A stretch of DNA of 64,000 nt from assembly GCA_964512835.1 (NCBI GenBank), contig CAZELA010000001.1, positions 169,372 to 233,371 on the forward strand, given 5' to 3'. Under the pieces are notes generated by a model that saw only the letters and a list, made by a program, of their open reading frames with translations, ran no database searches and was not told where the DNA came from. Positions 14,928-29,743 of this stretch are shown piece by piece; position 1 is the first letter of the stretch, and each line of letters begins with the position of its first letter. The DNA is from an uncultured Candidatus Saccharibacteria bacterium (lineage in GTDB: Bacteria; Patescibacteriota; Minisyncoccia; Phycocordibacterales; UBA2100). The translations under genes were made by a program, and so were the position numbers.

Positions 14928-14954
14928 GGCCGGAATCCGCAGGGGATTCCGGCC
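14928..14954 (-). terminator. Array hairpin, family GGCCGGAATCC-N5-GGATTCCGGCC
   Basis: Perfect 11-bp stem with loop GCAGG. Downstream of the minus-strand gene 14978..15232. Confidence 0.7.
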
Positions 14955-14977
14955 TATTTTTTGAGCAGCGGGGCACG

Positions 14978-15232
14978 TTACTCCGCGCGGATCTCGATTG
15001 CGCGCAGTGCTTCGGAGCCGACTTCGACCGCGAGCACGCACACGCGAATGTTCTTCGGGAGCTTGCCGTCGCGCGTCGTGTTCATGATGGGGATTCGTCC
15101 CCGTGTATCCGGACTCACGACCGCCATTCGCATATTGCTATAGGCTTCGTCGAGTCGGATCACGCCGCTTCGTCCGTCACGGCTTACCGTGAGGATATAC
15201 CCGGGCAATTGCACGGATTGCTCAGTCGTCAT
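14978..15232 (-). CDS. Hypothetical protein (84 aa)
   Basis: CGGAGGCACC ribosome-binding site. Upstream is TTGATT-N16-ACGTAGGAT. Confidence 0.5.
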   Translation of the reverse strand: MTTEQSVQLPGYILTVSRDGRSGVIRLDEAYSNMRMAVVSPDTRGRIPIMNTTRDGKLPKNIRVCVLAVEVGSEALRAIEIRAE

Positions 15233-15293
15233 GGTGCCTCCGTTGGTTGGATTTCCTGCCGCATCCTACGTGTGTCCTGCCAAAAATCAAAAG

Positions 15294-15319
15294 GCCGGAA
15301 CTCCTTGCGGAATTCCGGC
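15294..15319 (-). terminator. Array hairpin (GCCGGAAcTCC..GGAATTCCGGC)
   Basis: Hairpin followed on the minus strand by TTTTGATTTTTGG. This run is both the T-tract and the -35 box. Confidence 0.65.
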
Positions 15320-15331
15320 AGAAACGGGGGG

Positions 15332-15553
15332 TTACCCGCTCATGATTTGTGAGGGGCTGAACTCGGGTTGATCGGGCGGAAGTGCGCCGTACGTGCGCGA
15401 GGGGACGGCCGGCATGGTAATGCCCCCGTTTGCGCAGATTTCGTTCGTAACGCGCACAACGTCGTCGGCGGTCCAGCCGTTACCGACTGTTTGTGCGATC
15501 GCGCTCGGCGATAGCTGCAAAATCGATACGAATTCCAACAGTGACTTCGTCAT
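15332..15553 (-). CDS. Hypothetical protein (73 aa)
   Basis: GGGAGAT ribosome-binding site. Upstream is TTGATT-N16-GCGTAGGAT. Confidence 0.5.
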   Translation of the reverse strand: MTKSLLEFVSILQLSPSAIAQTVGNGWTADDVVRVTNEICANGGITMPAVPSRTYGALPPDQPEFSPSQIMSG

Positions 15554-15614
15554 CCCATATCTCCCTCGATGAAAGCCAGTCCGAATCCTACGCGGGTATC
15601 GCCAAAAATCAAAA

Positions 15615-15641
15615 GGCCGGAATCCGCGGAGGATTCCGGCC
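15615..15641 (-). terminator. Array hairpin GGCCGGAATCC-GCGGA-GGATTCCGGCC
   Basis: Perfect 11-bp stem. Confidence 0.7.
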
Positions 15642-15672
15642 TTCGTTGTCGACTGGTGCCGACGTGTACAGA

Positions 15673-16029
15673 TCAGGCGACGAGCGAGACCTTGGGGATC
15701 TTGATGTCGCTCTTGTCGGTGGTGAACCGCCAGGGTTCGTTCCAGTTGGCGAATCCGTTCGAGATGAAGCGATAGGTCATATCGCGGTAGTCGATCTCGG
15801 GATTCGTCTCGCGACGGTAGGTCTCGAGCGCCTGGTCCAGTTCGGGATCGAACGTCAGCCAGTTGGCCGGGTCCTTGGTGAACTCGCGGAACGCGAAGTC
15901 GGCCCGGTCGTGGATCGTGTGATCGTCACACGAAACGGTGCCGACGAGCGCGCCGTCACAATAGAATCCGACGACCGACGTGGTCGCAGACTGTCGGGTG
16001 ATAGTTGCAGTGATCAGCCACTCGCGCAT
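15673..16029 (-). CDS. Hypothetical protein (118 aa)
   Basis: CGGAGGGCACC ribosome-binding site, then ATG. Canonical promoter TTGACA-16-TATTAT upstream. The longer 295-aa ORF in the track was trimmed to this Met. Confidence 0.5.
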   Translation of the reverse strand: MREWLITATITRQSATTSVVGFYCDGALVGTVSCDDHTIHDRADFAFREFTKDPANWLTFDPELDQALETYRRETNPEIDYRDMTYRFISNGFANWNEPWRFTTDKSDIKIPKVSLVA

Positions 16030-16160
16030 GGTGCCCTCCGTTGTTGCCCTGTGTGCCGCAAACATAATACAACTCAAACCAATTGTGTCAAATACATTGA
16101 AACAAAGGAAAGACCGGAATCTAGCGATTCCGGCCTCAAGCATGTGCAGGACTGTCGTAG

Positions 16161-16604
16161 CTATCGCGCGAGCTGCAGCTCCATCAGGTGATCCTGTGTC
16201 TCGCCGAATTGCGATAGGGTGCGGAAGCCAAAGTTGCGTCGGTAGTATTCCGGTATTTTTGCCGTGAGCAGCAGCACGTCCATATCGGGATTGGTTCGGG
16301 CGTGCGCGATGATTTTCTCGAGCAGCATCTTGCCGATGCCGCGCCGCTGGAATGCGGGATCGACGTTGACCCAGAATACGTTGCCGACGGAATAATCCAT
16401 CCACGATACGATGTACCCCGCAAAGCCGAGCAATCGCCCCTTCTCGACCACTGCAAAGTACGTGGGTCGAACGACGCTCGAGCCGGTAAACATGGCCTCG
16501 AGCTCGCGGCGTGCGAGTGCGGCGTAGTGCGGGGAATAGTTCTTGGCGACGATAGCGCACGCAGCGGCGATGTCGTCCCGGCGCAGTTTACGGATATGTG
16601 CCAT
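16161..16604 (-). CDS. GNAT family N-acetyltransferase
   Basis: Acetyl-CoA binding motif QRRGIGKMLLEKII. AAGGGA ribosome-binding site. GCGTAGGAT at 16632-16640 (plus-strand complement). Confidence 0.8.
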   Translation of the reverse strand: MAHIRKLRRDDIAAACAIVAKNYSPHYAALARRELEAMFTGSSVVRPTYFAVVEKGRLLGFAGYIVSWMDYSVGNVFWVNVDPAFQRRGIGKMLLEKIIAHARTNPDMDVLLLTAKIPEYYRRNFGFRTLSQFGETQDHLMELQLAR

Positions 16605-16673
16605 GGCGGTGTCCCTTTTTGAGCCGCGGCCATCCTACGCCCGAAAAATATTTTGTGCCAGTGCAAAACAAAA

Positions 16674-16700
16674 GGGCCGGAATCCAGGGGATTCCGGCCC
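16674..16700 (-). terminator. Array hairpin GGGCCGGAATCC-agg-GGATTCCGGCCC
   Basis: 12-bp stem. Confidence 0.7.
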
Positions 16701-16721
16701 TTGTCGTTGGGTAGGAGCAGA

Positions 16722-17291
16722 TCAGATGTCGCGGCCTGCGGGTATCCAGCAGGGGCCGATGACCGGCGGCAACTGGTTGTACCACGGGTCGGGGTCGACC
16801 TGACCATCCTTGATTTCCACCTTGTACACGCGTGCTGTCGGCTTGCTCGGATCCGAGTAAAACGAAAGCTCGTTTGTGTCGAAGTCGGCCACCAGGAACG
16901 GCATCATTTGCCGATACGGTCCGCACTTGCGGAAAAACGCGAGGCCCACGTGCTCGGTCGGGTTCTCGGCTTTGCCAAAGTAGCAGCCCTGGATGTACGG
17001 ACCTTGATCGCGGGTCGGCGTACACTTGCCGTCCTTGGTATCAAATACCATGCCCGCCGGCGGCTGCCATGGGGTAACGGCTTGCGCGCGCGCCGAGGTC
17101 GAACATACGAGAAGTCCGAATCCGATCATGATCACCGCGATGCCGACGAAGAATGCGACGGCGCCGAGGTTTTGTGCGCGGCCCCAGTTGGGGAACACGC
17201 CGTCGCGGGGAACTGCGATGGGCATGAGTCCCGTGGCCATTGCTACAAACCCAATCGTAATCAGCGCGAGCTCGATCAGAACTGAGGTCAT
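16722..17291 (-). CDS. Membrane protein with a Cys-containing extracytoplasmic domain (189 aa)
   Basis: Two N-terminal transmembrane helices. AAGGAG ribosome-binding site. GCGTAGGAT promoter upstream. Confidence 0.55.
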   Translation of the reverse strand: MTSVLIELALITIGFVAMATGLMPIAVPRDGVFPNWGRAQNLGAVAFFVGIAVIMIGFGLLVCSTSARAQAVTPWQPPAGMVFDTKDGKCTPTRDQGPYIQGCYFGKAENPTEHVGLAFFRKCGPYRQMMPFLVADFDTNELSFYSDPSKPTARVYKVEIKDGQVDPDPWYNQLPPVIGPCWIPAGRDI

Positions 17292-17367
17292 TGCCTGCTC
17301 CTTTTGTCTCTATTTGCATCCTACGCTCGTTTTATAAAAATCAAAGGCGAGTAGATACATACAAAAC

Positions 17368-17395
17368 GGCCGGGTCCCCGCTAAGGGACCCGGCC
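17368..17395 (-). terminator. Array hairpin variant GGCCGGGTCCC..GGGACCCGGCC
   Basis: 11-bp stem. Confidence 0.65.
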
Positions 17396-17424
17396 ACAAG
17401 GAAAGAACTACGACGCAATACCCG

Positions 17425-17622
17425 TCATTCCAAAACGCGATGTACCAATCGCATACCGCCCCACGCAATCAGTGCAAGTGCGGCGAGAGCCGACATTACA
17501 AAAGACACACCCCAATGGATGTAGAACGTAAACGGATACCACCGGGATGTCATTACGTAGACGAGTGTCGAAAGGTAGATAACGCTCAGGGAGGGTAAAG
17601 TCTTTTGGAGAGGCACGTTCAT
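17425..17622 (-). CDS. Small membrane protein (65 aa)
   Basis: Two transmembrane segments. GAGGAG ribosome-binding site. Promoter TTGACA-18-TAAAAT and a ~75 nt leader. Confidence 0.4.
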   Translation of the reverse strand: MNVPLQKTLPSLSVIYLSTLVYVMTSRWYPFTFYIHWGVSFVMSALAALALIAWGGMRLVHRVLE

Positions 17623-17742
17623 TACAGGAATTGGCTCCTCTGTTGTTGACGGGATTGGTCTTTCAGACCAGTTGCGTATCGTACTGCATCAAATCGAAAA
17701 CATTTTTACCTATACCTGTGGACAAATGTCAAAAAAGAAAGC

Positions 17743-17771
17743 AGCCGGAATTCCGCGAGGGAATTCCGGCT
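17743..17771 (-). terminator. Array hairpin AGCCGGAATTCC..GGAATTCCGGCT
   Basis: 12-bp stem. Confidence 0.65.
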
Positions 17772-17803
17772 GATCTTATTTGCGCAGTGGTCAGTCGCAG
17801 GGC

Positions 17804-18109
17804 TTAGCCTGCGCGGCGGATACCCGCTGCCTTGCCCGTGCTCGGCGCCGGCGTCGTGCTTGCTGCACTGAACTGCTGGCGCGGCGGGGTCATGAGCGTG
17901 ATCACATTGGTCCGCACGTACTGTTCGACCGTGAGGCCGACGGATGCGGCTCTCGCCGCGAGTGCTTCCTTGTTGGCCTGTTGCCGCGCGCGTTTGCGCG
18001 ATGCGCTTTTGGCTTGACCTGCGGTCGCGTTGGAAACAACACGGGCGGTCCTACGCAAACTAGAATGTACCGACATTTGTAGTCCTTCTGAAACTGACAT
18101 GCTGTTCAT
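17804..18109 (-). CDS. Small basic protein (101 aa)
   Basis: The GCGTATAGGAT motif lies 9 nt upstream of the first ATG, so the mRNA may be leaderless or start at a later Met. Confidence 0.35.
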   Translation of the reverse strand: MNSMSVSEGLQMSVHSSLRRTARVVSNATAGQAKSASRKRARQQANKEALAARAASVGLTVEQYVRTNVITLMTPPRQQFSAASTTPAPSTGKAAGIRRAG

Positions 18110-18153
18110 GCCTCGGCTATCCTATACGCTCGTGCTTCGATTTTCAAATGTAA

Positions 18154-18183
18154 GGGCCGGAATCCGCGAGCGGATTCCGGCCC
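18154..18183 (-). terminator. Array hairpin GGGCCGGAATCCG..CGGATTCCGGCCC
   Basis: 13-bp stem. Confidence 0.7.
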
Positions 18184-18204
18184 TACTTTGCAGTCTGAGG
18201 ATTA

Positions 18205-18528
18205 TTAGGACGCGGCTTTCGATTCTGCGATGGCCTGGGTGTTGATCTCGTCGATCACATCCGAGCTCACGACGCGTGTGCACCAGAGTGCTGTCTGCGC
18301 GGCCACGAGCTTGTAGAATGCCTGGGCAAGCTTGCCGTCGTCGAGCATTGTGCCGATCTGCTCAAGCTCATACACCGCATCGCAGGCGATCTCGATCGGG
18401 TCGAACGGTGCCATGCCGGGCGCTCGCGGATTGTTCACCAGTTTCTTCGGCTGCAGTATCGCAATGCGGCTCGTATAGGCGAGTGTGGCATGGGCGGCAA
18501 AGCGGATAGCGCGTGCGTTCAGGTCCAT
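18205..18528 (-). CDS. Hypothetical protein (107 aa)
   Basis: AGGGAGA ribosome-binding site. GCGTAGGAT at 18557-18565. Confidence 0.5.
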   Translation of the reverse strand: MDLNARAIRFAAHATLAYTSRIAILQPKKLVNNPRAPGMAPFDPIEIACDAVYELEQIGTMLDDGKLAQAFYKLVAAQTALWCTRVVSSDVIDEINTQAIAESKAAS

Positions 18529-18585
18529 GGGTAGTCTCCCTATTTTTCCGGCCTGCATCCTACGCCAATCCCATACAAAATCAAA

Positions 18586-18611
18586 AGCCGGGATCGCATG
18601 GAATCCCGGCT
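18586..18611 (-). terminator. Array hairpin AGCCGGGAT..ATCCCGGCT
   Basis: 9-bp stem. Confidence 0.6.
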
Positions 18612-18630
18612 GTCGACATCGAATGTGCTG

Positions 18631-19023
18631 TTATGGGAACGGGATTGTGTCGTGACCGTCCTGCCGCTGCCAACCCGTTTGGACGATGTGTCCCACTCCG
18701 GGAAATGGTGCAGCCTCAAATCGCGCGTTCGAAAAGTTGAGGCTGATGCGGTACCGACCGTCTTCTTCTTCCAGCCCGCGATCGTAGCCGGGCATGTAGC
18801 CGTGATATTCCTTGATGATCCCGATCGTGCCGGGCTTCGGACCAAAGGTGCGGTATTTTCCGATCTCGACGCCGTCGGCGAGAATGGTCCACGCCTTTGC
18901 GTAGTCTATGTTGTAGCTACGATCGCCAACGACCGGACCGGTCACGGTAAGCACTGCTGTGCCATACCGCGCCTTCAGGAACTCGAAAAACGTTTCGGCA
19001 CCGGGGAGTGGGGAGTCTGCCAT
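18631..19023 (-). CDS. Hypothetical protein (130 aa)
   Basis: GAGGG ribosome-binding site. AT-rich promoter with an extended -10 TGTATAGA. Confidence 0.5.
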   Translation of the reverse strand: MADSPLPGAETFFEFLKARYGTAVLTVTGPVVGDRSYNIDYAKAWTILADGVEIGKYRTFGPKPGTIGIIKEYHGYMPGYDRGLEEEDGRYRISLNFSNARFEAAPFPGVGHIVQTGWQRQDGHDTIPFP

Positions 19024-19097
19024 CGTCGTACCCTCGTTTGTTTGTGCGGTCTATACAGTGCAATATTTTACACATTGAGTCAATACCTAGCAAAAGA

Positions 19098-19121
19098 GCC
19101 GGAATCCAAGGGGATTCCGGC
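19098..19121 (-). terminator. Array hairpin GCCGGAATCC-aagg-GGATTCCGGC
   Basis: 10-bp stem. Confidence 0.65.
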
Positions 19122-19179
19122 CGTTTGTGTTGATGAGACCCGTGGTAGGGAATCTGCGGCGGAGCAGTCGTTGCGCGCG

Positions 19180-19425
19180 TCAGCTCAGTGCGTCTTGATG
19201 TACTGCATAAAATTCGTACGCGTGCCTCGGGTCTTCGATCAGCTGCTTGAACTGTTCTCCGTCCTCGACAACCGTGAGCGTCGCATTGGATTCTGCCTTG
19301 CGACAGGCACAAAGCTGTTCCCGTGGTCGCAGTAGTGTGCACATGAACTCGAAGCTCTTGATCTCGCAGCAGATGCGACGCGTGCCGTCGTGTTCTTGCT
19401 GAGTGAATTTCAACTTAACCGTCAT
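19180..19425 (-). CDS. Cys-containing hypothetical protein (81 aa)
   Basis: GAGGAA ribosome-binding site. GCGTAGGAT at 19459-19467. Cys residues at ICCEIK, MCTLL and LCAC. Confidence 0.5.
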   Translation of the reverse strand: MTVKLKFTQQEHDGTRRICCEIKSFEFMCTLLRPREQLCACRKAESNATLTVVEDGEQFKQLIEDPRHAYEFYAVHQDALS

Positions 19426-19485
19426 TACTATTCCTCACTGTGCAAATGTCAGATTCGTATCCTACGCCGTTCGCCCAAAAAATAA

Positions 19486-19514
19486 AGCCGGAATTCCACA
19501 GGGGAATCCCGGCG
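19486..19514 (-). terminator. Array hairpin, imperfect (GCCGGAATTCC..GGGAATCCCGGC)
   Basis: Imperfect inverted repeat of the same family. Confidence 0.55.
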
Positions 19515-19531
19515 TTTGATGTCGAGAAAGA

Positions 19532-19801
19532 TCAGTGCTCAGGTGCCAGCCACTGCTCGGCGTCGCGACTCGTGAGGAGTCCGAGCTTCACGAGGTGGAT
19601 GCCGGCGTAGTAGAGCGATCGCATGCCGCGCCGATGACTCTGCGCCCGAGCGGCATCAATGAGTCGTCGCTCAGCAAGCACAGCGAGGCGTACTTCGTCT
19701 TCGGGCCACGGATCGCAGCGCGAAAAGAATTTGAGCCATCGCTCCGCCATCAGCACACGATAGCGGTCGTTCATACGGTAATCCGGTTTGCGGGCGGACA
19801 T
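19532..19801 (-). CDS. Hypothetical protein (89 aa), last gene of a 4-gene operon
   Basis: AAGGAG ribosome-binding site. Start is 4 nt after the stop of the upstream membrane gene. Confidence 0.5.
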   Translation of the reverse strand: MSARKPDYRMNDRYRVLMAERWLKFFSRCDPWPEDEVRLAVLAERRLIDAARAQSHRRGMRSLYYAGIHLVKLGLLTSRDAEQWLAPEH

Positions 19802-19804
19802 GTG

Positions 19805-20134
19805 CTACTCCTTGGCCCACTCGTCGGCGAGGATCTTGCGACCTTCGCGATAGATCGGCGCGACTAGCCACACGACCGCTGCCACGACTGCGAGTTCGCA
19901 GATCATCAGTAGAATCTTTGCGATCTCGAATGCGAGGCTCGTTTTGAAGCCGAACGCCATCAGTGCGCTCGCGATCGGAATGATCGGATATTCGTGCACA
20001 GACACGATGATGTCCATGAACGACGCGAATGAAATCGTGATGCCGTTGTACAGCATGTAGCCGAAAACCGAGATCGGGATAATGACCTCGATGCAGATCA
20101 CGATCGCAGCAACCATTATTTGTCGGCGCGTCAT
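19805..20134 (-). CDS. Membrane protein (109 aa, 3-4 transmembrane segments)
   Basis: Hydrophobic throughout. ATGA overlap with the upstream gene. Confidence 0.55.
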   Translation of the reverse strand: MTRRQIMVAAIVICIEVIIPISVFGYMLYNGITISFASFMDIIVSVHEYPIIPIASALMAFGFKTSLAFEIAKILLMICELAVVAAVVWLVAPIYREGRKILADEWAKE

Positions 20135-20394
20135 TGGTGATTCCTCTCCAGTGCGACCATCCGGCCGTTGTTGAGCGTTGCGGTCTTGACCTCGGGCAAC
20201 GCCGCAAACGCGGCCACCTTGGCCTCGTCCTCACCCGGCGTGACTTTGAGCACATTCACGCGGCGCACTCCGGTGAAGCCGCTTTCGAATTCGCAGCCCT
20301 GTGCCGCGACGATGTCCTGGATGGTCTGTTGGGATACATCGTTGTTGAAAACCACGATGATCCTGCCGCGCCACGCTTCGGAACCCTGTGTCAT
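20131..20394 (-). CDS. Small alpha/beta protein, possibly a peptidase-inhibitor-I9 / propeptide-like fold (87 aa)
   Basis: WRGRIIVVFNNDVS..VNVLKVTPGEDEAKVAAFAALPEVKTATLNNG. Paralog of the next gene. The I9-like assignment is tentative. Confidence 0.5.
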   Translation of the reverse strand: MTQGSEAWRGRIIVVFNNDVSQQTIQDIVAAQGCEFESGFTGVRRVNVLKVTPGEDEAKVAAFAALPEVKTATLNNGRMVALERNHQ

Positions 20395-20423
20395 CCTCGT
20401 GCTCCTGTTGTATTCGGTTGCGA

Positions 20424-20669
20424 TTAGAGTGCCACGCCATCATCGTTCAAGTGTGCGCTTTTGACCTCGGGAAGTTTTTGGAACGCGGCGACTTTTGCCT
20501 CGTCCTCGCCCGGAGTCACGGTGACCACATTCACGTGGTGCGTCCCGTCGAAATCCTGCAGCAGTTTGCAGCCCTCGGCTGCGACTAGTTCACGGATCTT
20601 TGTCGCGGGCGTACCGCGGTGAAAGATCACGATGATCGAGCCGCGCCAATCTTCCAGTTTCTTTGCCAT
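20424..20669 (-). CDS. Paralog of the 20131..20394 product (81 aa)
   Basis: WRGSIIVIFHRGTP..VNVVTVTPGEDEAKVAAFQKLPEVKSAHLNDDG. GGAGGA ribosome-binding site. GCGTAGGAT at 20696-20704. Confidence 0.5.
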   Translation of the reverse strand: MAKKLEDWRGSIIVIFHRGTPATKIRELVAAEGCKLLQDFDGTHHVNVVTVTPGEDEAKVAAFQKLPEVKSAHLNDDGVAL

Positions 20670-20723
20670 CCGTTCCTCCGTTTTTACCCGAGGGCATCCT
20701 ACGCGAGCCCGACAAAAATGAAA

Positions 20724-20751
20724 AGCCAGAATTCCACAGAGAATTCCGGCC
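20724..20751 (-). terminator. Array hairpin, degenerate (AGCCAGAATTC..GAATTCCGGCC)
   Basis: Imperfect member of the family. Confidence 0.5.
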
Positions 20752-20770
20752 TTTGTAGAGTACTGAGCGA

Positions 20771-21079: not shown

Positions 21080-21096
21080 ACGGTTCTCCTCGCGCA

Positions 21097-23017: not shown

Positions 23018-23061
23018 AATATGTCAAATACGGCACTGCCGTCCGTACAGCGGTCCTGTCG

Positions 23062-23280: not shown

Positions 23281-23282
23281 AG

Positions 23283-23795: not shown

Positions 23796-23812
23796 CCTTT
23801 TTAAAAGAAATC

Positions 23813-23836
23813 GCCGGGATCCATGCGGATCCCGGC
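23813..23836 (-). terminator. Array hairpin GCCGGGATCC-atgc-GGATCCCGGC
   Basis: 10-bp stem. Confidence 0.6.
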
Positions 23837-23860
23837 CGATAGTACGAATGTGCGGTTTTG

Positions 23861-24076
23861 TTACGCCCAGGGCGTGAGCCAGAACGCACGGTTGGTGTGC
23901 AGTCCGGCGTAGAAGCCGAGCATGGCGAGCATGCGATAGGCACGCTCGAGATCGATCCCGGGGATGCATTCCACGAATGCGCCGCCGATCATGGTGAATA
24001 GCAGCATGCACATGATCGCGCCTTTGAGCGTGATCGCACGGTCACTGTCGGTATCGCGGATCCTGAGTCCGTTCAT
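23861..24076 (-). CDS. Small membrane protein (71 aa)
   Basis: GGAGGA ribosome-binding site. Confidence 0.4.
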   Translation of the reverse strand: MNGLRIRDTDSDRAITLKGAIMCMLLFTMIGGAFVECIPGIDLERAYRMLAMLGFYAGLHTNRAFWLTPWA

Positions 24077-24132
24077 CGTGTGGTCCTCCGTTTTCCTGCG
24101 TGCAGACTACTCAAACGCGCCACAAAAGCAAA

Positions 24133-24155
24133 GCGGCCGGAGAAGCTCCGGCCGC
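24133..24155 (-). terminator. Array hairpin GCGGCCGGAG..CTCCGGCCGC
   Basis: 10-bp stem. Confidence 0.6.
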
Positions 24156-24179
24156 AGTGTTCACGAGAACAGGGAATGA

Positions 24180-24461
24180 TCAGGCCGCGAGCTTCTTCTC
24201 GGCCGTGAGCGCACGCAGCGCATCGTTCTCGACCCACGTGCCGTCGGCGCGCAACAGATCGAACTGCGCCGCGGTCACGTTGATCTCGAGGGTGATGTGC
24301 GGCACCGCGTGGTCTTCGTGGTGGTCGATGTCGACGATCGTGCAGAGGCCCACCGTGAGACCCCAGTTGTGGCCGACGGCCGGAAGGACGGGCCACTGGG
24401 TCACGCGATACAGGTAGCTGTGCTTGCCTTTGACGCTGACGGACAGCAGAAAATCGATCAT
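24180..24461 (-). CDS. Hypothetical His-rich protein (93 aa)
   Basis: GGAG ribosome-binding site. TTGACA about 60 nt upstream. Confidence 0.4.
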   Translation of the reverse strand: MIDFLLSVSVKGKHSYLYRVTQWPVLPAVGHNWGLTVGLCTIVDIDHHEDHAVPHITLEINVTAAQFDLLRADGTWVENDALRALTAEKKLAA

Positions 24462-24697
24462 GCTTTCGCTCCATTTCCAGAGGGTCGGGTGACCCTCAAA
24501 ACCGCGTATACAATGCATATAAAAACACCGTGTGTCAAGTGCCGAACGGAAGGGTGTCGCGCCCACGCGGTCTCGGACTCAGATTCACTCAATAGACCAC
24601 ATTCTGGGCGCAAATACGGGCTTTGAGAGGCTGCACACGGTAGGTCCTCCTGCGATCCGTTACAGCCCTCGAGGCGGTGGGCGGCTATAAAAGCAAG

Positions 24698-24724
24698 CGG
24701 CCGGGATTGCGAGTATCCCGGCCG
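24698..24724 (-). terminator. Array hairpin CGGCCGGGAT..ATCCCGGCCG
   Basis: 10-bp stem. Confidence 0.6.
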
Positions 24725-24735
24725 TTACATTGGTG

Positions 24736-25104
24736 CTAATCGGCGGTCCATGTCGCCCACGCGATAGCCGCAGGAGCACCATCGATTGTGAGCGAGCGGA
24801 TCTCCCAACCTTTTCTGGTATCGCGGTTGTTCGGGTTGGTGGGTTCGTATCGCGCAGCCTCGGTATATCGAACGAGTTCGCGCGCGGTATGCTCCGCTGT
24901 CATCGAAAGCGCAATCGATGCGCCGCTCGGCTCCGGCCTGACAGAGAACAGTCGTCCCGAACGCGGCGCGCCGCGAATCGGCACGTAGTACTCGAATCGG
25001 GGATTGTCACCGAGCGCATGTCGCAGCGCCTCCGCAATGTGTGAAGTTTGCGAACTTGCACCCACAGGTGTCGGGGTATTCGGCAACGCCGAGAGGTCGA
25101 TCAT
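24736..25104 (-). CDS. Hypothetical protein (122 aa), second gene of a 2-gene operon
   Basis: AAGGGAG ribosome-binding site. Start overlaps the stop of the upstream gene. Confidence 0.5.
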   Translation of the reverse strand: MIDLSALPNTPTPVGASSQTSHIAEALRHALGDNPRFEYYVPIRGAPRSGRLFSVRPEPSGASIALSMTAEHTARELVRYTEAARYEPTNPNNRDTRKGWEIRSLTIDGAPAAIAWATWTAD

Positions 25105-25427
25105 TCCGTTGCTCCCTTGGTCCGGTTCTTCGAGTGTTCGAGAGCGGTGAAGAATCCGTCACCGATGCGTTTGAGTTCCTGCCACTGCTCCTTGGTAAAC
25201 ACGAGGCCGCACACGTGCACGCCGGTCCCGGACGAAATATCGAAGGGGACGATGAACAGGTGTTGGACGTCGCCGTTGCTCGCAAGACTGCCGTCGAAGA
25301 CGATCTTTTTTCCGGTCAGGTCGAATTTCGGTTCGAGCGGCGGCGTGCTCATAAATTGGGCAAGCGCATCCTCTAGTTCGCGGGCCGCACGTGCGTCAGC
25401 GAGATTGGTCACAGTATCCTTGGTCAT
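25101..25427 (-). CDS. Hypothetical protein (108 aa)
   Basis: AAGGAGAA ribosome-binding site. Variant -10 GTGTAGGGT. Confidence 0.5.
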   Translation of the reverse strand: MTKDTVTNLADARAARELEDALAQFMSTPPLEPKFDLTGKKIVFDGSLASNGDVQHLFIVPFDISSGTGVHVCGLVFTKEQWQELKRIGDGFFTALEHSKNRTKGATE

Positions 25428-25502
25428 GGCTTCTCCTTGTTCTGCGTGCACCCTACACCGCAGCAAAAAACTGCGCCAGTGATGCCCGTTTCATCGAACA
25501 TA

Positions 25503-25512
25503 CCGTTAACGG
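25503..25512. promoter_or_regulatory. Perfect palindrome CCGTTAACGG in a divergent intergenic region
   Basis: 10-bp perfect palindrome between the 25427 (minus) and 25549 (plus) start codons. Confidence 0.35.
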
Positions 25513-25548
25513 GTGTATCGTTCACCGAGTCAACGGCAGGGAGATTCA

Positions 25549-25914
25549 ATGAGCACCGTCGCAGAAACGATCGCCGGAGCACTGCTTTCGCTTAACGGTG
25601 TTGCAATGTATGTGCCGCCACGTCAGTCACGCAAAGGGCGCAAAAACATTGCCGGATTCCGCACCGAGTGTGCGCGGTATTTCACGGTGCCGCATACGGA
25701 AGTGTTGTTCGTCACGCGCGCCTATGAACATTTTCTCGTGAGAGATATGACCGAGGCGGAGTCGGTATGGCGAACGCGCGAACTCTGGTACGTGCTGACC
25801 GTTCGGTCTGACGTGCTGAGGGTCTGCGAACAGCAGATACCTATCCGGCGCGCCGCCGAATTGAACCGATGTTCTTTTAGTTCCGACAAGGAACCTATCC
25901 GACCCGATGCGTAA
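25549..25914 (+). CDS. Hypothetical protein (121 aa), plus strand, divergent
   Basis: AGGGAGA ribosome-binding site. Confidence 0.4.
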   Translation: MSTVAETIAGALLSLNGVAMYVPPRQSRKGRKNIAGFRTECARYFTVPHTEVLFVTRAYEHFLVRDMTEAESVWRTRELWYVLTVRSDVLRVCEQQIPIRRAAELNRCSFSSDKEPIRPDA

Positions 25915-25927
25915 GCGTCGGGTCGTT

Positions 25928-26335
25928 CTACATGATGCGCGTGTCGGCCGGTGTTTTCATCCAATTATTGTGGCGACCGTCGGCATATGAGAGCGGACCC
26001 GAAACGAGCTCGTCAATCGTCGCATCATCGAGTGAATTGAGGAATATGCCCACAAACGGTCCTCCCATCCATTCGGCATCCCCGTGTTCGTGCGTATAGA
26101 CGCCGCACGTTTTGCAGAAATAACGGATCGCGGTCGGGTTCTTACCGCTGTAGCCGGTGGCATGATCGTCGCCGGAGAGGAGTTTGAATGCGGCGGGTTG
26201 TATAAACACTTTCCACGAACGGATCTTGGTGCAGTACGTGCAGTTGCACCGTCCGGTGCCTTTGGAAAGATCGATATCTGCCTGATAGGTAATGGCGCCG
26301 CAGTGACAGCTGCCGTGATAAGTTTTGGTTGCCAT
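25928..26335 (-). CDS. GFA (glutathione-dependent formaldehyde-activating / CENP-V) family protein
   Basis: HGSCHCGAITY..GRCNCTYC..CKTCGV zinc-binding Cys motifs. The start lies right after a hairpin, with TATGAT 8 nt upstream, suggesting a leaderless mRNA. Confidence 0.7.
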   Translation of the reverse strand: MATKTYHGSCHCGAITYQADIDLSKGTGRCNCTYCTKIRSWKVFIQPAAFKLLSGDDHATGYSGKNPTAIRYFCKTCGVYTHEHGDAEWMGGPFVGIFLNSLDDATIDELVSGPLSYADGRHNNWMKTPADTRIM

Positions 26336-26393
26336 AGACACATCATAACAAAACGACCCGGGCTGGTGCCGGGTCGTTGTCGTGACTGAAAGA

Positions 26394-26684
26394 TCATGCC
26401 GATGCATTCTTTTCGGCCTGCTCGCGGAGCCGTTTCCGAAAGATGCCGCGGAACATCCAGATGACGAACAGGGAGATCAGCGGGAGTGCGATGATTTTCT
26501 CGGGCTGGTTGTCGAACAAGAGCCATTGCAGGTACGCGCATACGAACACGTGTGCCGGGACGATGACGAACGGAACCTTTGAGTCGATATTGCGTGAGAA
26601 GATGGCCATCGACCAACTTACAACCGCAACAAAGGTCAGTCCGAATGCGATCATGAACACAATGTCTGCGTTTCCGTCATTCAT
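26394..26684 (-). CDS. Membrane protein (96 aa)
   Basis: GGAGG ribosome-binding site. Three transmembrane segments. Confidence 0.5.
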   Translation of the reverse strand: MNDGNADIVFMIAFGLTFVAVVSWSMAIFSRNIDSKVPFVIVPAHVFVCAYLQWLLFDNQPEKIIALPLISLFVIWMFRGIFRKRLREQAEKNASA

Positions 26685-26695
26685 TTTCGCCTCCG

Positions 26696-27015
26696 TCAGT
26701 GATCGCCGATGAGTCGGCGCAGAAGCCACATGCTTCCGAGCCATCCGATGAAGCCAACTGCGATCAAGGCCGATATTTTGACGATGATCGGGTCTGTCGA
26801 AACAAGTTCAATAATGTGATCCACGGTGCCCGCCCGAATGTTGAAAGGAGTCCGACCATACTGCCAACGAGCGTACCCGTCGCCAGCATGAATCCTCCTT
26901 GGTTGGTTCCCACGCCGATGCTTACATGCAGGATCGCCGCAATGAGAGCGCCTGCGATCATGCCGGATGCGATGCGATACGCTGCGGCAAAAACACTGAG
27001 CCGACGCTCTTCCAT
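26696..27015 (-). pseudogene. Membrane protein gene with an apparent -1/+1 frameshift near a GGGCGGG run (~26820-26835)
   Basis: Frame A reads MEERRLSVFAAAYRIASGMIAGALIAAILHVS..STFGRA. Frame C continues protein-like (GTVDHIIELVSTDPIIVKISALIAVGFIGWLGSMWLLRRLIGDH) to a stop at 26696. AAGGAG ribosome-binding site and TTGCAA-16-TAGTCT promoter upstream. Confidence 0.4.
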
Positions 27016-27160
27016 GTGCGTTTCTCCTTTCGGTAGACTACGTATGTACGAACGAATTGCAACCCATTGCGTGAGTATGACGTCGTGCTATAGAGAATAC
27101 ATGAGACACAACATTCTTGTGGTCGTCCTTCGAAGCCCGCTTGGCGAGCTGTGTTTTGGA

Positions 27161-27186
27161 TGATTCACGAGAATTCTCCGGAACAG
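27161..27186 (+). promoter_or_regulatory. Hairpin AGAGCCCGC-caca-AGCGGGCTCT plus T-tract in the 5' region of the 27230 gene
   Basis: Terminator-like structure on the plus strand ~45 nt upstream of a plus-strand start. No plus-strand gene lies upstream of it. Confidence 0.35.
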
Positions 27187-27229
27187 AGCCCGCCACAAGC
27201 GGGCTCTGTTCTTTTAACAGGAGGCGACA

Positions 27230-27502
27230 ATGGAAGAGGTATATCTGCCGCGTGTGCGGGGAGGCCAGTGGGCGGTGAGTCGTATGGTGGACGGTGCGTG
27301 GTTGGCACTCATCGAAGACCGCCCGCTCTATCACAAAGACGATGCCGTAAAAGCACTCGCCGCATGCAAGATCCCGGCAACGGACAAGAATCTGGAGCGG
27401 TATTTTCCATCGCGTCCGTTTTGCGGACGGTGTCCGACACTCGAATTTCTGGAGCTGTTCTCGAAAGTCGGGAGCGGTCAGAAAAGGGAGGTCGGCGTCT
27501 AA
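27230..27502 (+). CDS. Hypothetical protein (90 aa)
   Basis: CAGGAGG ribosome-binding site. Followed by the bidirectional terminator 27509..27536. Confidence 0.45.
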   Translation: MEEVYLPRVRGGQWAVSRMVDGAWLALIEDRPLYHKDDAVKALAACKIPATDKNLERYFPSRPFCGRCPTLEFLELFSKVGSGQKREVGV

Positions 27503-27508
27503 CAAAAA

Positions 27509-27536
27509 GTGCCGGATCCCCTGTGGGATCCGGCAC
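27509..27536. terminator. Bidirectional terminator GTGCCGGATCCC-ctgt-GGGATCCGGCAC
   Basis: A-tract on one side and T-tract on the other. Sits between convergent genes. Confidence 0.7.
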
Positions 27537-27554
27537 TCTGCGTATCGAATGAGC

Positions 27555-28295
27555 TTACGCAGCGACGGGCTCTTCCGGGACCGCGAGTTCGTTGCCGTAC
27601 TCGTCGAACCCGCGCTTCAGGATCGCGATCTGCGCACGCATGTTGATCATGCTGAAGGCGCGGTGCGTGAACTGGCTCACGAGCTTGTGCACCGGCCGGT
27701 GAACGAATTGTTCGCACTGGTCGAGCATGTGCATGATCTCGCGCGCGCGACGGATTGTTTCCTTGGTCGGAACCGGTCCGAGATACGCGGAGAGATCGTT
27801 GTTGATCCGCCCGAGCACCCAATTCGAGGCCCACTGCGATTCCGGTATACCCTCGTCGGACTTGCAAACATAGTCGCGCACGAGACCGCCGATGTACCAC
27901 GGGGCCATTTTTACGAACTCGGCATGATCCGACGAGGCGTGATCATCACACCAGAGAGCGGTACGGATGTACGCCAGAATGAGCGCGGGGTAGACCTTCC
28001 ACATTGCAAAGTGCGGCGACCCGTGTTGATTCTTGGCGATCTCCTGGAAGATCGCGTCGGGCTCGTTGATGTGACCGGTGAGCAGCGCTTCGAAGATCGA
28101 TGCGAGGTATTGCTCCTCTTTTAGAATCGAATACGTCTCGAAGCTGACGACGAGCCGCGCGCGGTCGTGCGCGTGCGCCATGCTGCCCATGATCGCGGCA
28201 ACGACGAGGTCGTGCTGCAAATCGGCATTCGGTCCTTCAAGATAGGGGTGTGCGTTGAGCAGCCGATTTACGCGCGCCGTGTGTTGAACGTCCAT
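27555..28295 (-). CDS. Hypothetical protein (246 aa)
   Basis: AAGGAGA ribosome-binding site. The ~120-nt leader carries three CCCTTTCAG direct repeats. Confidence 0.55.
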   Translation of the reverse strand: MDVQHTARVNRLLNAHPYLEGPNADLQHDLVVAAIMGSMAHAHDRARLVVSFETYSILKEEQYLASIFEALLTGHINEPDAIFQEIAKNQHGSPHFAMWKVYPALILAYIRTALWCDDHASSDHAEFVKMAPWYIGGLVRDYVCKSDEGIPESQWASNWVLGRINNDLSAYLGPVPTKETIRRAREIMHMLDQCEQFVHRPVHKLVSQFTHRAFSMINMRAQIAILKRGFDEYGNELAVPEEPVAA

Positions 28296-28414
28296 TGGAA
28301 TCTCCTTTCAGAGACGGTGTGAGCCCCTTTCAGGGCGTTTCAAGGAGCAGAGGCCCTTTCAGGCATGCCGCCAGTACTGTGCAATATTCGTATAAAAAAG
28401 CAAGTCATATAAAA

Positions 28415-28438
28415 AGGCGAGGGCCGCAAGGCCCTCGC
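28415..28438 (-). terminator. Hairpin GGCGAGGGCC-gcaa-GGCCCTCGCC
   Basis: Followed on the minus strand by a T-rich, AT-rich promoter region. Confidence 0.65.
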
Positions 28439-28456
28439 CGTTATTCGTCACAACTA

Positions 28457-28645
28457 TCAGTGCATTTGCTTCTGAGCGGCGACCTCTTCGTGGCCGCACG
28501 ATTCGCAGCGGATACAGTTGTCGTATCGCACTACTGAGCATTTACCGCACGCATCGCAGGGATCATCCAGGTACGCGTCACTCATCGCGGCGATCATCTG
28601 TGATACGGCACCCGTCGCATGGAGGCGTCGGTGCGCTTTCTTCAT
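28457..28645 (-). CDS. Zinc-ribbon protein (62 aa)
   Basis: CDACGKC...CIRCESCGHE, a 4-Cys zinc ribbon. GGAGGG ribosome-binding site. ATGA overlap with the upstream membrane gene. Confidence 0.5.
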   Translation of the reverse strand: MKKAHRRLHATGAVSQMIAAMSDAYLDDPCDACGKCSVVRYDNCIRCESCGHEEVAAQKQMH

Positions 28646-28845
28646 GGCTTCGTGGCCCTCCGGTAGTAGATGGTGGTTGCAATTCCGACCGTCATCATAA
28701 TCCCGCTCGTGAGCACACCGCATCCCAGTGATGCGAGTACGCCGACGGTAGTCGATGTGTCGATCATGGTCATGAACTTTGCCGTTGTGGCGCCCGCAAG
28801 CGCAAGCGCGACCACGGCGGTCTCGGCGGTATCGGTGATCCTCAT
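28642..28845 (-). CDS. Small membrane protein (67 aa)
   Basis: GAGAGGA ribosome-binding site. TTGCAT-17-GCGTAGGAT (28870-28878). Confidence 0.5.
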   Translation of the reverse strand: MRITDTAETAVVALALAGATTAKFMTMIDTSTTVGVLASLGCGVLTSGIMMTVGIATTIYYRRATKP

Positions 28846-28921
28846 GGCAGGTCCTCTCGTCCCGCGAAAATCCTACGCCCGAGGCGCCGGGAATGCAATC
28901 ACTCGGGGTGCGTATAGCAAA

Positions 28922-28943
28922 CGGCTCCGCGTGTGCGGAGCCG
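28922..28943 (-). terminator. Hairpin CGGCTCCGC-gtgt-GCGGAGCCG
   Basis: 9-bp stem followed by a T-rich tract on the minus strand. Confidence 0.55.
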
Positions 28944-28960
28944 GAATGCGGAATGACGGT

Positions 28961-29245
28961 TTATGCGGAAACCTGCGAACTCGTCGAATTTGAGGCTTCG
29001 TATGCGGCCTGTCGTTTGACTTCGCGTCGGTACGCGAAGGCATCAAGGTACTCGCGCACTGCCGTAGGAAGCATAGCGAGAGCTGCAATGAACAAACCGA
29101 ATGCGACGGCACTCAATATCACGACCGAGAGCGGGGCAGTGAACTGCCAGGCAAATACGGCAACCGTGACCGGCGCGGTATTCATAAAGGCAAAATCAAC
29201 TGCAAGTGCACCCACGATCATTCCGACAATGAGAAACAAGATCAT
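28961..29245 (-). CDS. Membrane protein (94 aa)
   Basis: Three transmembrane segments. No clear ribosome-binding site. A TTGACA promoter with the palindrome CGAAATATTTCG sits between -35 and -10. Confidence 0.45.
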   Translation of the reverse strand: MILFLIVGMIVGALAVDFAFMNTAPVTVAVFAWQFTAPLSVVILSAVAFGLFIAALAMLPTAVREYLDAFAYRREVKRQAAYEASNSTSSQVSA

Positions 29246-29317
29246 ACGCAGAAATGTTAGCTGCTAATCCTGAGTATGAGACGGTCCGCGGAGCCCCGGA
29301 TTTCAGGAAGATGTTAT

Positions 29318-29329
29318 CGAAATATTTCG
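29318..29329. promoter_or_regulatory. Perfect 12-bp palindrome CGAAATATTTCG
   Basis: Lies in the promoter region of the 28961..29245 gene. Confidence 0.4.
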
Positions 29330-29350
29330 CAATTTCTGTCAAATGAAAAC

Positions 29351-29371
29351 GGCTCGGGGTTCACCCGAGCC
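29351..29371 (-). terminator. Hairpin GGCTCGGG-gttca-CCCGAGCC
   Basis: Followed by GTTTTCATTTGACA on the minus strand. Confidence 0.6.
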
Positions 29372-29399
29372 GAGTACGCGTATTCATACGCAACAAGAA

Positions 29400-29624
29400 C
29401 TACTGTCCCGACTCCTGACGACGCTTCCGTTCGATACGTTGCTCGCGCCCGCTGACGACCAGCCAGATGATGAATGCGATCACGAACAGTACCGACAGAC
29501 CGACCTGCCCGAGCGGTCCGATGCCGAGTGCATGCGGCAGCGGTGACGCGGAGAACAATTCGATCAGCAGTGCCGCAATGAAGTATGACGGCAACATGTG
29601 AAGGTCTTTGGCTTTCAAAAGCAT
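29400..29624 (-). CDS. Small membrane protein (74 aa)
   Basis: AAAAGG ribosome-binding site. -10 GGTTAGGAT at 29680-29688. Confidence 0.45.
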   Translation of the reverse strand: MLLKAKDLHMLPSYFIAALLIELFSASPLPHALGIGPLGQVGLSVLFVIAFIIWLVVSGREQRIERKRRQESGQ

Positions 29625-29711
29625 CAGTGTAGTGCCTTTTCTCTTTGGTAGAGGGGAGATGGTCAAACGACCGTGGTGTATCCTAACCGATTTTTCCGCA
29701 ATGAACAGAAG

Positions 29712-29743
29712 CGGGCCGGAAATCGCTGTGGATTTCCGGCCCG
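29712..29743 (-). terminator. Array hairpin CGGGCCGGAAATC..GATTTCCGGCCCG
   Basis: 13-bp stem. Confidence 0.65.

Follow-up and report, generated by a model that had tools for sequence, protein, structure and literature searches.

Putative terminator-promoter modules in a hypervariable small-gene array between rpoD and addA of a Candidatus Kaiserbacteria chromosome

The 64,000-nucleotide (nt) stretch of DNA analyzed here (the window) carries, between the sigma factor gene rpoD and an addA-like gene, a run of small genes whose intergenic spaces share a GC-rich palindrome. On balance, we favor the interpretation that a conserved hotspot between rpoD and addA here holds a hypervariable array of accessory genes, in which modules resembling the promoter early stem-loop (PeSL) elements of T4-type phages probably terminate transcription, restart it, and serve in gene exchange. 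The array would be built from single-gene or short-operon cassettes, most of them separated by a shared module of ~60 nt. In each module, the GC-rich hairpin and its U tract would act as the intrinsic terminator of the upstream cassette; the T tract would overlap a -35-like TTGATT, and (G)CGTAGGAT, 16 to 18 nt downstream, would be the -10 element that restarts transcription for the next cassette. With terminator and promoter in one module, any gene lying between two modules would be insulated and expressed on its own, and the modules, being same-orientation direct repeats, would also serve as portable stretches of homology. Recombination between modules, or with an incoming fragment from a related cell, could then delete, insert, replace, or relocate cassettes, and the same recombination could maintain the likeness of the stems in one genome, in the manner of concerted evolution. 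The anatomy of the module, its restriction to the array, the covariation in its stems, the conservation of locus and module, and a cassette mosaicism with several junctions in modules were observed directly.

In 11 of the intergenic spaces, the coding (minus) strand reads, in order, stop codon, GC-rich hairpin, T tract, GCGTAGGAT, ribosome-binding site, and ATG. The T tract holds TTGATT, often as TTTTGATTTTTGG, and GCGTAGGAT contains the -10-like hexamer TAGGAT, 16 to 18 nt past TTGATT and 19 to 46 nt (mostly 22 to 28 nt) past the hairpin. A previous sequence-only reading of the window had described the palindrome; the conserved stretch is longer and continues through the T tract to GCGTAGGAT, a promoter half that this reading missed. 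A repeat finder returned a 61-nt direct-repeat family (D2) that covers the module from the -10 element through the hairpin. On the plus strand, the 11 exact copies of ATCCTACGC all lie within 14887-28878. The shorter GTAGGAT occurs 13 times in the window, with 11 occurrences at the module position and one more upstream of a gene at 46.3 kb; on the coding strand of the window and its relatives, 36 occurrences lie in arrays versus 2 outside. Other array spaces have near-consensus sites of the TTGACA-N16/17-TATTAT type after the hairpin. The individual modules and hairpins are as follows.

14887-14955, minus strand: hairpin (14927-14955) and GCGTAGGAT (plus-strand ATCCTACGC at 14887); TAGGAT stands 8 nt before the ATG of the downstream gene, which is putatively leaderless.
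15263-15319, minus strand: hairpin (15294-15319), TTTTGATTTTTGG, then ACGTAGGAT; one of two direct repeats flanking a 73-amino-acid (aa) cassette.
15585-15643, minus strand: hairpin (15613-15643), TTTTGATTTTTGG, then GCGTAGGAT; reference copy of D2 and second repeat flanking the 73-aa cassette.
16110-16137, minus strand: family hairpin, then a consensus-type promoter-like site, TTGACA-16 nt-TATTAT, in place of TAGGAT.
16632-16702, minus strand: hairpin (16672-16702) and TTTTTCGGGCGTAGGAT, ahead of a gene for a GNAT acetyltransferase; a third strain (L190) has exactly this layout.
17318-17397, minus strand: variant hairpin GGCCGGGTCCC/GGGACCCGGCC (17366-17397), TTGATTTTT, then GCGTAGGAT.
17742-17772, minus strand: family hairpin GCCGGAATTCC-ctcgc-GGAATTCCGGC upstream of a 65-aa cassette; a sequence-identical hairpin stands elsewhere in the close relative.
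18119-18184, minus strand: hairpin (18153-18184), TTGAAA, then GCGTATAGGAT; the downstream gene is putatively leaderless, with 9 nt to ATG.
18557-18611, minus strand: hairpin (18586-18611), TTTGATTTTG, then GGCGTAGGAT; one flank of a 130-aa cassette indel.
19097-19122, minus strand: family hairpin, then a promoter-like site, TTGACT...TATAGA; other flank of the 130-aa cassette indel.
19459-19513, minus strand: hairpin (19487-19513), TTTATTTTTTGG, then GGCGTAGGAT; two cassettes are inserted here in the relative.
20696-20754, minus strand: hairpin (20721-20754), CATTTTTG, then GCGTAGGAT.
21439-21453, minus strand: weak nonfamily terminator; a 95-aa/74-aa cassette replacement begins right past its T tract.
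21905-21961, minus strand: hairpin (21934-21961), GTTGCTTTTA, then GGCGTAGGAT; the homology of the relative ends a few bases past TAGGATTCCC, and its hairpin differs.
22553-22613, minus strand: variant hairpin GCGGCCGAGTC (22587-22613), TTGACA, 16 nt, then TAGGAT.
23813-23836, minus strand: family hairpin GCCGGGATCC/GGATCCCGGC.
24133-24155, minus strand: variant hairpin GCGGCCGGAG/CTCCGGCCGC.
24698-24724, minus strand: family hairpin CGGCCGGGAT/ATCCCGGCCG.
27508-27537, no strand assigned: family-like hairpin GTGCCGGATCCC/GGGATCCGGCAC between convergent genes.
28870-28943, minus strand: nonfamily terminator hairpin (28922-28943), then GGGCGTAGGAT; a promoter half without the family stem.
29680-29743, minus strand: hairpin GGGCCGGAAATC/GATTTCCGGCCC (29712-29743) with TTAGGAT.

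All of the palindrome copies placed by the sequence-only reading are present; its count of at least 18 becomes 19 family hairpins, to which the array adds five unrelated terminators between 14.9 and 29.7 kb. Of these copies, 14 came up in a search for perfect hairpins, with stems of 9 to 14 bp (14927-14955, 15613-15643, 16672-16702, 17368-17395, 17742-17772, 18153-18184, 18586-18611, 19098-19121, 22588-22612, 23813-23836, 24133-24155, 24698-24724, 27508-27537, and 29712-29743), and a terminator scan recovered those with imperfect stems (15294-15319, 16110-16137, 19487-19513, 20721-20754, and 21934-21961). With at most one mismatch, the 11-mer GGCCGGAATCC has 19 matches in the window versus 1.45 expected, a count reached by none of 100 shuffles, and 15 of the 19 lie within 14928-23837. 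The GCCGG/CCGGC at the base of the stem is nearly invariant, and the changes in the inner stem compensate one another (AATCC/GGATT, AATTCC/GGAATT, GGTCCC/GGGACC, GGATCC/GGATCC, and AAATC/GATTT). The loops are variable, as had been claimed, over 3 to 8 nt rather than 3 to 6 nt.

The hairpins lie 4 to 57 nt past the stop codons of minus-strand genes and have a U-rich tail on the coding strand only (4 to 7 U among the 8 bases after the stem), in keeping with their earlier description as unit terminators. They fold stably, with stems of 9 to 15 pairs and predicted stabilities of -17 to -29 kcal/mol, and by sequence criteria they are predicted intrinsic (rho-independent) terminators. Each intergenic space has a single hairpin, always in the terminator orientation; clusters and inverted pairs are absent. 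On the basis of the minus-strand-only U-rich tails, the stability, and the -10-like site, we infer that the intergenic unit is a composite terminator-promoter module.

The distance from TAGGAT to ATG is 24 to 33 nt where a Shine-Dalgarno sequence is present and 8 to 9 nt in two window genes without one (14279-14878 and 17804-18109); it is 7 nt in a gene near 12778 of another relative, L126, and that gene also lacks a Shine-Dalgarno sequence. The short spacing suggests leaderless mRNAs in this lineage of the candidate phyla radiation (CPR). Because of the constant spacing to the start codon and this leaderless-type spacing of 7 to 9 nt, TAGGAT can be read as the putative -10 hexamer of a sigma-70-type promoter. 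In several relatives, array promoters have an element, (C)CTRGCG or ACTGGCA, ~18 nt before GTAGGAT (e.g., CCTAGCGAATCTTCATTTTGAGGAGTAGGAT), which takes the place of a TTGACA-like -35 (L126 at 12778, 13755, and 16780; L181 at 9206; L128 at 11923 and 16653; window at 16632) and may represent a distinct promoter class or a regulator site.

The likeness among the hairpins exceeds what termination needs, as the sequence-only reading had argued, since terminators outside the array are unrelated in sequence. A common 8-mer is found in 82 of 276 pairs of island hairpins (30%) versus 3 of 105 pairs (3%) of terminators from the rest of the window and 3 of 360 pairs (0.8%) that join an island hairpin with an outside terminator. 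We built a covariance model (R1) from the 19 window hairpins and searched it against the window and the loci of the relatives. Matches of at least 27 bits occur only inside arrays, both in the window and in contigs that were not part of the training set (L126, L128, L129, L130, L131, L180, L181, and L188), whereas ordinary terminators of the same genomes score at most 24.3 bits. There are none in the 47 kb of the window outside the array, none in L191, which reaches ~9 kb past its right end (together, ~57 kb of array-free sequence; the analysis covered ~10% of the 565-kb source contig), and none in the nonarray parts of the relatives. Across 59 R1 matches, 93.7% of the cells pair, and 98 cells show double changes versus 30 in shuffles; none of 500 shuffles reached the observed value, and controls with a slid partner collapse. 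The alignment was fitted to the model and palindromes were counted on both strands, so that these numbers lean toward structure. The pattern nevertheless points to selection on the hairpin structure. A search of Rfam yielded nothing meaningful for this family.

The sequence-only reading had proposed repetitive extragenic palindromes (REPs), alone or in bacterial interspersed mosaic elements (BIMEs), and the related REP doublets (REPINs) spread by a REP-associated tyrosine transposase (RAYT) would similarly give a many-copy family of extragenic palindromes with covarying stems; even the tetranucleotide GTAG, typical of such elements in this view, is present in the nearby GCGTAGGAT. We consider this origin very improbable. 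The suggested look for island-like clustering does place all copies in one array, but the ~57 kb of flanking sequence and the nonarray parts of the relatives are empty, and the hairpins stand one to a gap in the terminator orientation without the inverted pairs and clusters of a dispersing element. The distance from the stem to the GTAG on its 3' side varies from 19 to 46 nt, and the GTAG tracks the start codon as a -10 element would; the 5' flanks of the stems are unconserved, and no GTAG head adjoins them. No integrase, recombinase, transposase, HUH, or RAYT/IS200-like protein was detected among the 30 larger window open reading frames (ORFs) scanned or in precomputed Pfam tables covering ~20-kb neighborhoods in eight genomes; the adjacent RAYT or IS200-like tnpA that a REP origin would call for, and any Y1 transposase, are thus missing from both sets.

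A second dispersal hypothesis treats the 10-mer GCCGGAATCC as a transformation signal that occurs in inverted pairs as a terminator, like the DNA uptake sequences (DUSs) of Neisseria. The architecture of the 10-mer is formally alike, and CPR bacteria are believed to rely on the uptake of DNA. This too we regard as a very slight prospect. Uptake sequences are found genome-wide at about one per kb and also inside genes (PMC2397512), whereas the exact 10-mer is absent, single or paired, from the window outside the array, where four one-mismatch matches are at about chance level. Further, the inner stem varies with compensating changes, as a fixed recognition word should not. We also considered a double-stranded operator for a dimeric regulator and rejected it, given that the half-site spacing varies with the loops (3 to 8 nt) and the arms covary.

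Searches for the family farther afield returned scattered single hairpins. A scan of genome contigs for GCCGGAATCC-N3-7-GGATTCCGGC gave no clustered locus among the matches listed and at least 120 isolated single hairpins, many in Streptomyces; the genome of the window is not among these matches, and they do not bear on its total number of copies. Single copies of the hairpin with 10-bp arms occur in the genomes of dozens of Streptomyces species (L007-L084) and may represent one conserved orthologous terminator. In metagenome contigs, the hairpin followed by TTT was found as 48 isolated single terminators on unrelated contigs, none from the samples of this organism. Three loci with several one-mismatch matches (L068, L112, and L122) proved on inspection to be due to chance. 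Viral contigs gave six hairpin matches and no phage version of the array; one of these contigs (L187, IMG/VR IMGVR_UViG_3300031922_000090) has at 5300-5600 ~130-nt tandem repeats that each contain a GCCGGAATCC-cgaa-GGATTCCGGC hairpin; their flanks are conserved and bear no relation to the array module.

The window is bacterial chromosome. The genes rpoB, rpoC, dnaG, and rpoD lie on the plus strand at 0.1 to 13.2 kb, and the part from 30 kb rightward carries the addA-like helicase-nuclease gene, valS, tsaD, an ABC transporter, and three tRNAs. The top named homologues of the sigma factor come from Candidatus Kaiserbacteria and other Parcubacteria, and the host is a CPR bacterium of the Candidatus Kaiserbacteria. 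The array and its flanks comprise the following features.

11925-13238, plus strand: rpoD, primary sigma-70 factor (Pfam Sigma70 regions r1_1 to r4); conserved left flank of the array.
13276-30090, minus strand: array of ~36 small genes (62 to 344 aa), most of them with GGAGG-type ribosome-binding sites; the rpoD-addA synteny is shared by relatives.
13276-14878, minus strand: two overlapping rpoD-proximal genes of 344 and 199 aa, matching PDC-M43 (B and A) in PADLOC.
25513-25914 and 27230-27502, plus strand: two ORFs within the array.
30069-33239, plus strand: AddA-like UvrD helicase with a PD-(D/E)XK nuclease domain (Pfam UvrD-helicase, UvrD_C, and PDDEXK_1); conserved right flank, at the same position in L128, L129, L180, and L189.

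Few array products have a family match in precomputed Pfam data (GNAT acetyltransferase, GFA, OmdA/DUF1905, DUF167, and LapA domain), and most match neither Pfam nor PHROGs; the ten array products tested against PHROGs had no match there. A megablast search of a phage collection with the window was likewise negative, and a phage origin of the island was ruled out on these grounds together with the chromosomal flanks. All-against-all BLASTP of the array genes recovered a single paralogous pair, neighboring genes at 20131-20394 and 20424-20669 on the minus strand (87 and 81 aa, 54% identity, separated by a 29-nt gap with no module), which is a tandem duplication; with only this pair, tandem gene duplication was rejected as the source of the repeats.

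The evidence for exchange comes from one closely related genome. This relative, GCA_964633425.1, is a fragmented metagenome-assembled genome (MAG), of which two contigs (L181 and L180) align with most of the array at ~92% nucleotide identity. The two genomes are collinear over 21.9 to 32.5 kb. Eight cassette-level differences fall in 13.3 to 21.9 kb and none in 21.9 to 30.1 kb; the array is thus polarized, with all eight rearrangements and the most uniform modules in its rpoD-proximal half, while the addA-proximal half holds clade-wide cassettes (OmdA/DUF1905, DUF167, and LapA domain).

Three of the eight differences (events 2, 5, and 6) have what appears to be the classic signature of exchange between direct repeats. 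In event 2, the window has the 73-aa cassette between two modules (15263-15319 and 15585-15643), and the relative has in its place one module that is a mosaic of both across ~50 nt of homology. Event 5 is the absence from the relative of the 130-aa cassette; the crossover falls in CCGGCT, at the 3' end of the hairpin base. In event 6, the relative has a PRA-PH/MazG-like gene and a 65-aa gene inserted at the hairpin equivalent to 19487-19513, and the window has this 65-aa cassette at another place (17425-17622). Hairpins of 27 nt that are identical in sequence, even in their loops, stand at nonorthologous positions of the two genomes, and both junctions lie at the 5' base of a hairpin, where only GCCGG(G) is common.

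Four other differences (events 1, 4, 7, and 8) end at a feature of a module. In event 1, the relative has 3.6 kb with an Old/AriA-like ATPase gene where the window has the PDC-M43 pair; on the right side, homology stops in the loop of the hairpin at 14927-14955, with the 5' arm kept and the 3' arm not. Event 4 is a 189-aa cassette missing from the relative, with its junction at the hairpin at 16672-16702. In event 7, the relative has a 132-aa gene a few bases past TAGGATTCCC of the module at 21905-21961, whose hairpin differs as well; this gene is present in L129, L130, and L131, and therefore it was probably lost in the lineage of the window. In event 8, a 95-aa gene in the window corresponds to an unrelated 74-aa gene in the relative, and the break comes right past the T tract of a terminator. 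The proposal of the sequence-only reading that the palindromes are copied or recombined thus finds support in copies at recombination junctions, as seen with one close relative.

JGI and Logan assemblies, made independently, have the same arrangement as the window at 100% identity, and the third strain (L190) has it at 98%. Five contigs (L001-L005) were tried as a source of strain variation and set aside, being 100% identical to the window with divergent ends that look like assembly chimeras. In one of them, a JGI contig (L001 at 15015-15068, corresponding to the window from 22603 onward), the sequence diverges in the loop of the hairpin at 22588-22612 into low-GC sequence; we treated this as a chimera, although it mirrors the break of the relative in the loop of the hairpin at 14927-14955. 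A second close pair, L126 and L127, turned out to be identical, and all other array pairs were too diverged for junction mapping.

Several observations weigh against a role of the modules in exchange or against their proposed promoter half. Event 3, an extra 58-aa gene after the GNAT gene in the relative, involves no module. Of 18 block ends, 10 fall no more than 7 nt from a hairpin, with a P of 0.08 against an intergenic-only null; in this one genome pair, hairpins with a 7-nt margin fill 37% of the intergenic space, and the distance test is only weakly supportive. Selection alone would keep only those indels that end between genes. Repeats in a fragmented MAG can cause misjoins, and one close pair was compared; the exact identity between modules, ~26 to 30 nt, is short for an assembler misjoin. 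Some junctions share only 5 to 7 nt (GCCGG and CCGGCT), which is short for RecA-type recombination. Finally, a sigma-70 consensus scan finds 13 promoter-like sites versus 10.1 in shuffles, an absence of excess that we ascribe to the poor score of TAGGAT with a weak -35.

These points can be assembled into an account in which the modules have no part in recombination. The array would be a coregulated set sharing a strong promoter and an efficient type of terminator, and its turnover would come from illegitimate recombination filtered by selection. The breakpoint statistic, not significant against the intergenic-only null, is consistent with this, as are the retention of the GTAGGAT -10 where the hairpins and -35 regions of relatives differ, which implies functional constraint, and the variability of the stretch between rpoC and dnaG (7.1 to 9.9 kb), which has no family hairpins. 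We still think this account unlikely. Termination leaves the sequence of the stem free, yet island hairpins share 8-mers far more often (30%) than they do with other terminators (0.8%). Nor would it predict identical 27-nt hairpins, loops included, at nonorthologous sites, hybrid single modules where the longer allele has two, or the concentration of all eight events in the half with the most uniform modules.

The short junctions invite a different alternative, namely, site-specific mobility directed by the hairpin, as in integrons. An HUH/Y1 nuclease or a tyrosine/serine recombinase encoded elsewhere would recognize the folded, GCCGG-based hairpin, cut its base or loop, and move hairpin-promoter-gene units. 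The relocated 65-aa cassette and the two-cassette insertion fit this well, with junctions exactly at the 5' base of the hairpin and only GCCGG(G) in common, and a further junction lies at the 3' base (CCGGCT) and another in the loop. The near invariance of GCCG and the opposite CCGGC in the 19 window stems next to a covarying inner stem, the variable loop length, which suggests recognition of a folded single strand and not of a double-stranded operator, and the single orientation of the cassettes are also in its favor. The crossovers, however, vary in position (5' base, 3' base, loop, past the T tract, and past the -10), the junction of the 73-aa cassette is a mosaic over ~50 nt such as homologous recombination or gene conversion yields, and no recombinase, transposase, or HUH protein was seen in the ORFs and Pfam tables noted above. 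Hence, such an enzyme-driven mechanism appears doubtful to us. In its boldest form, which we hold to be a long shot of the same order, the array would be an integrase-independent, expression-ready analogue of the integron in the CPR, with hairpin-promoter-gene units cut and rejoined at the GCCGG base or loop by a hairpin-directed enzyme or a replication-linked process; were that true, ultrasmall, host-dependent bacteria could sample and immediately express foreign ORFans and defense genes.

For the favored interpretation, in which modules act as terminator, promoter, and portable homology, the candidates for the enzymology may include RecA-type homologous recombination, microhomology or template switching, and a dedicated enzyme; the microhomologies of 5 to 7 nt would accommodate template switching, break-induced repair at hairpins, or such an enzyme.

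The locus is conserved well beyond the close pair. The layout rpoB-rpoC-(small genes)-dnaG-rpoD-(minus-strand array)-addA is found in eight genomes with sigma factor identities of 82 to 96%, and the array between rpoD and addA ranges in size from ~1.5 kb (L188) to ~17 kb (window). Few cassettes are common to the relatives, at 27 to 74% protein identity, and these have changed order but not strand: the cassettes that in the window run 15673, 21475, 21966, 22639, 23062 follow the order 23062, 15673, 22639, 21475, 21966 in L128. The hairpin family is present in the arrays of the relatives as GCCGGAATYC in L128 and L131 and as GCCGGGTCC in L126 and L130, and the -10-like GTAGGAT is kept even where hairpins and -35 regions differ. 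These patterns mark rpoD-addA as an old hotspot with fast turnover, and the module travels along with it.

At the rpoD-proximal end, the PADLOC matches of the window pair cover both components of the candidate defense system PDC-M43 (E = 4.7e-46 for B and 3.7e-31 for A), and the same slot in the close relative has 3.6 kb that includes an Old/AriA/GajA-like ATPase (L181 6381-7826). This end of the array therefore behaves as a defense-gene slot in a CPR genome.

Two further observations concern the neighborhood of the locus in the relatives. The array of L130 includes two adjacent genes for extracytoplasmic function (ECF)-type sigma factors (10043-11132). A second stretch of small genes lies between rpoC and dnaG (window 7084-9900, plus strand) and differs in content among relatives: compared with L181 111-1750, window 7084-7620 stands opposite L181 111-613, and L126, L128, L129, and L130 have other gene sets. 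The terminators there are outside the hairpin family, and the turnover of this stretch is independent of that family.

CPR (Patescibacteria) genomes are tiny and mostly metagenomic, and how they gain, express, and lose accessory and defense genes is poorly understood. Several contigs end inside the array, as its repeats break short-read assemblies, and therefore the most variable part of these genomes is probably underrepresented in MAGs. If our interpretation is right, the signature of GCGTAGGAT plus hairpin would make promoters and terminators easier to predict in an uncultured lineage and would help to find such arrays, with their ORFans and defense genes, in other genomes.

Among the known systems to which the array can be compared, integrons share with it small, unrelated, same-orientation genes separated by imperfect palindromes, conserved ends with a variable center, and a content and order that differ among relatives with the greatest turnover at one end. 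The attC-like junctions suggested by the sequence-only reading do not hold up, however: the array is flanked by rpoD and an addA-like gene, with no integrase domain recorded, in all eight genomes, and has no attI or Pc; its stems are perfect or nearly so, 9 to 14 bp within hairpins of 23 to 34 nt overall, as opposed to attC sites of 57 to 141 nt with extrahelical bases; it has neither R''-L''/L'-R' boxes nor a GTTRRRY core (attC: RYYYAAC ... GTTRRRY); its cassettes each have a promoter-like site, whereas integron cassettes are mostly promoterless; and its crossover points vary. REP, BIME, and REPIN elements are similarly numerous, near-identical extragenic palindromes able to act as terminators or mRNA stabilizers, but the array hairpins are confined to one array in the genome as sampled, single, and in one orientation, have no adjoining GTAG head, and have no RAYT gene nearby. 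The DUSs of Neisseria and the uptake signal sequences (USSs) of Pasteurellaceae resemble the module in having a conserved 10-mer that forms both arms of a terminator (PMC2397512), and differ from it in being dispersed in genes and across the genome, while the array motif is not and covaries in its inner stem. The fixed site between core genes, the high turnover, and the slot that holds either PDC-M43 or an Old/AriA-like ATPase are reminiscent of defense islands and hotspots. We know of no description of such islands as built from a repeated terminator-promoter module.

The closest known analogue of the array module appears to be the PeSL of T4-type phages, of which the array is not itself a member. 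PeSLs are composites of a sigma-70 promoter and a stem-loop terminator present at ~50 per T4-type phage genome (PMC2839356; PMC4122927), and they gather ahead of ORFans within hyperplastic regions (Arbiol et al. 2010, PMC2839356; Comeau et al. 2014, PMC4122927). Recombination between PeSLs explains indels between close relatives and yields minicircles; both their activity and the minicircles have been shown experimentally (PMC2839356; PMC4122927), whereas the array modules are known from sequence. In the literature that we could cover, which is incomplete and hence weak evidence, PeSLs are discussed only for phages and related viruses, with nothing on such arrays in the CPR. Like a PeSL, the array module is a short intergenic motif that would join a sigma-70-type promoter to a stem-loop, is present in tens of copies in a hyperplastic region, and lies just upstream of small ORFans, each of which would be its own insulated transcription unit. 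Indel and replacement junctions fall in the motifs of PeSLs and may do so here, where three of eight events show repeat flanks and four end at a module feature, for one pair and with a P of 0.08 against the intergenic-only null. The array differs in being chromosomal, at a fixed locus between housekeeping genes of a CPR bacterium instead of in a phage genome; in having its stem-loop always before the promoter, as against the five positions that the PeSL stem-loop takes relative to the -35 and -10; in stems that belong to one family (GCCGGRAWYC) rather than poly-G/poly-C tracts; and in a -10-like TAGGAT where PeSLs have the Escherichia coli consensus. If the parallel is true, modular shuffling by composite regulatory cassettes, known so far from T4-type phages, would also work in cellular chromosomes.

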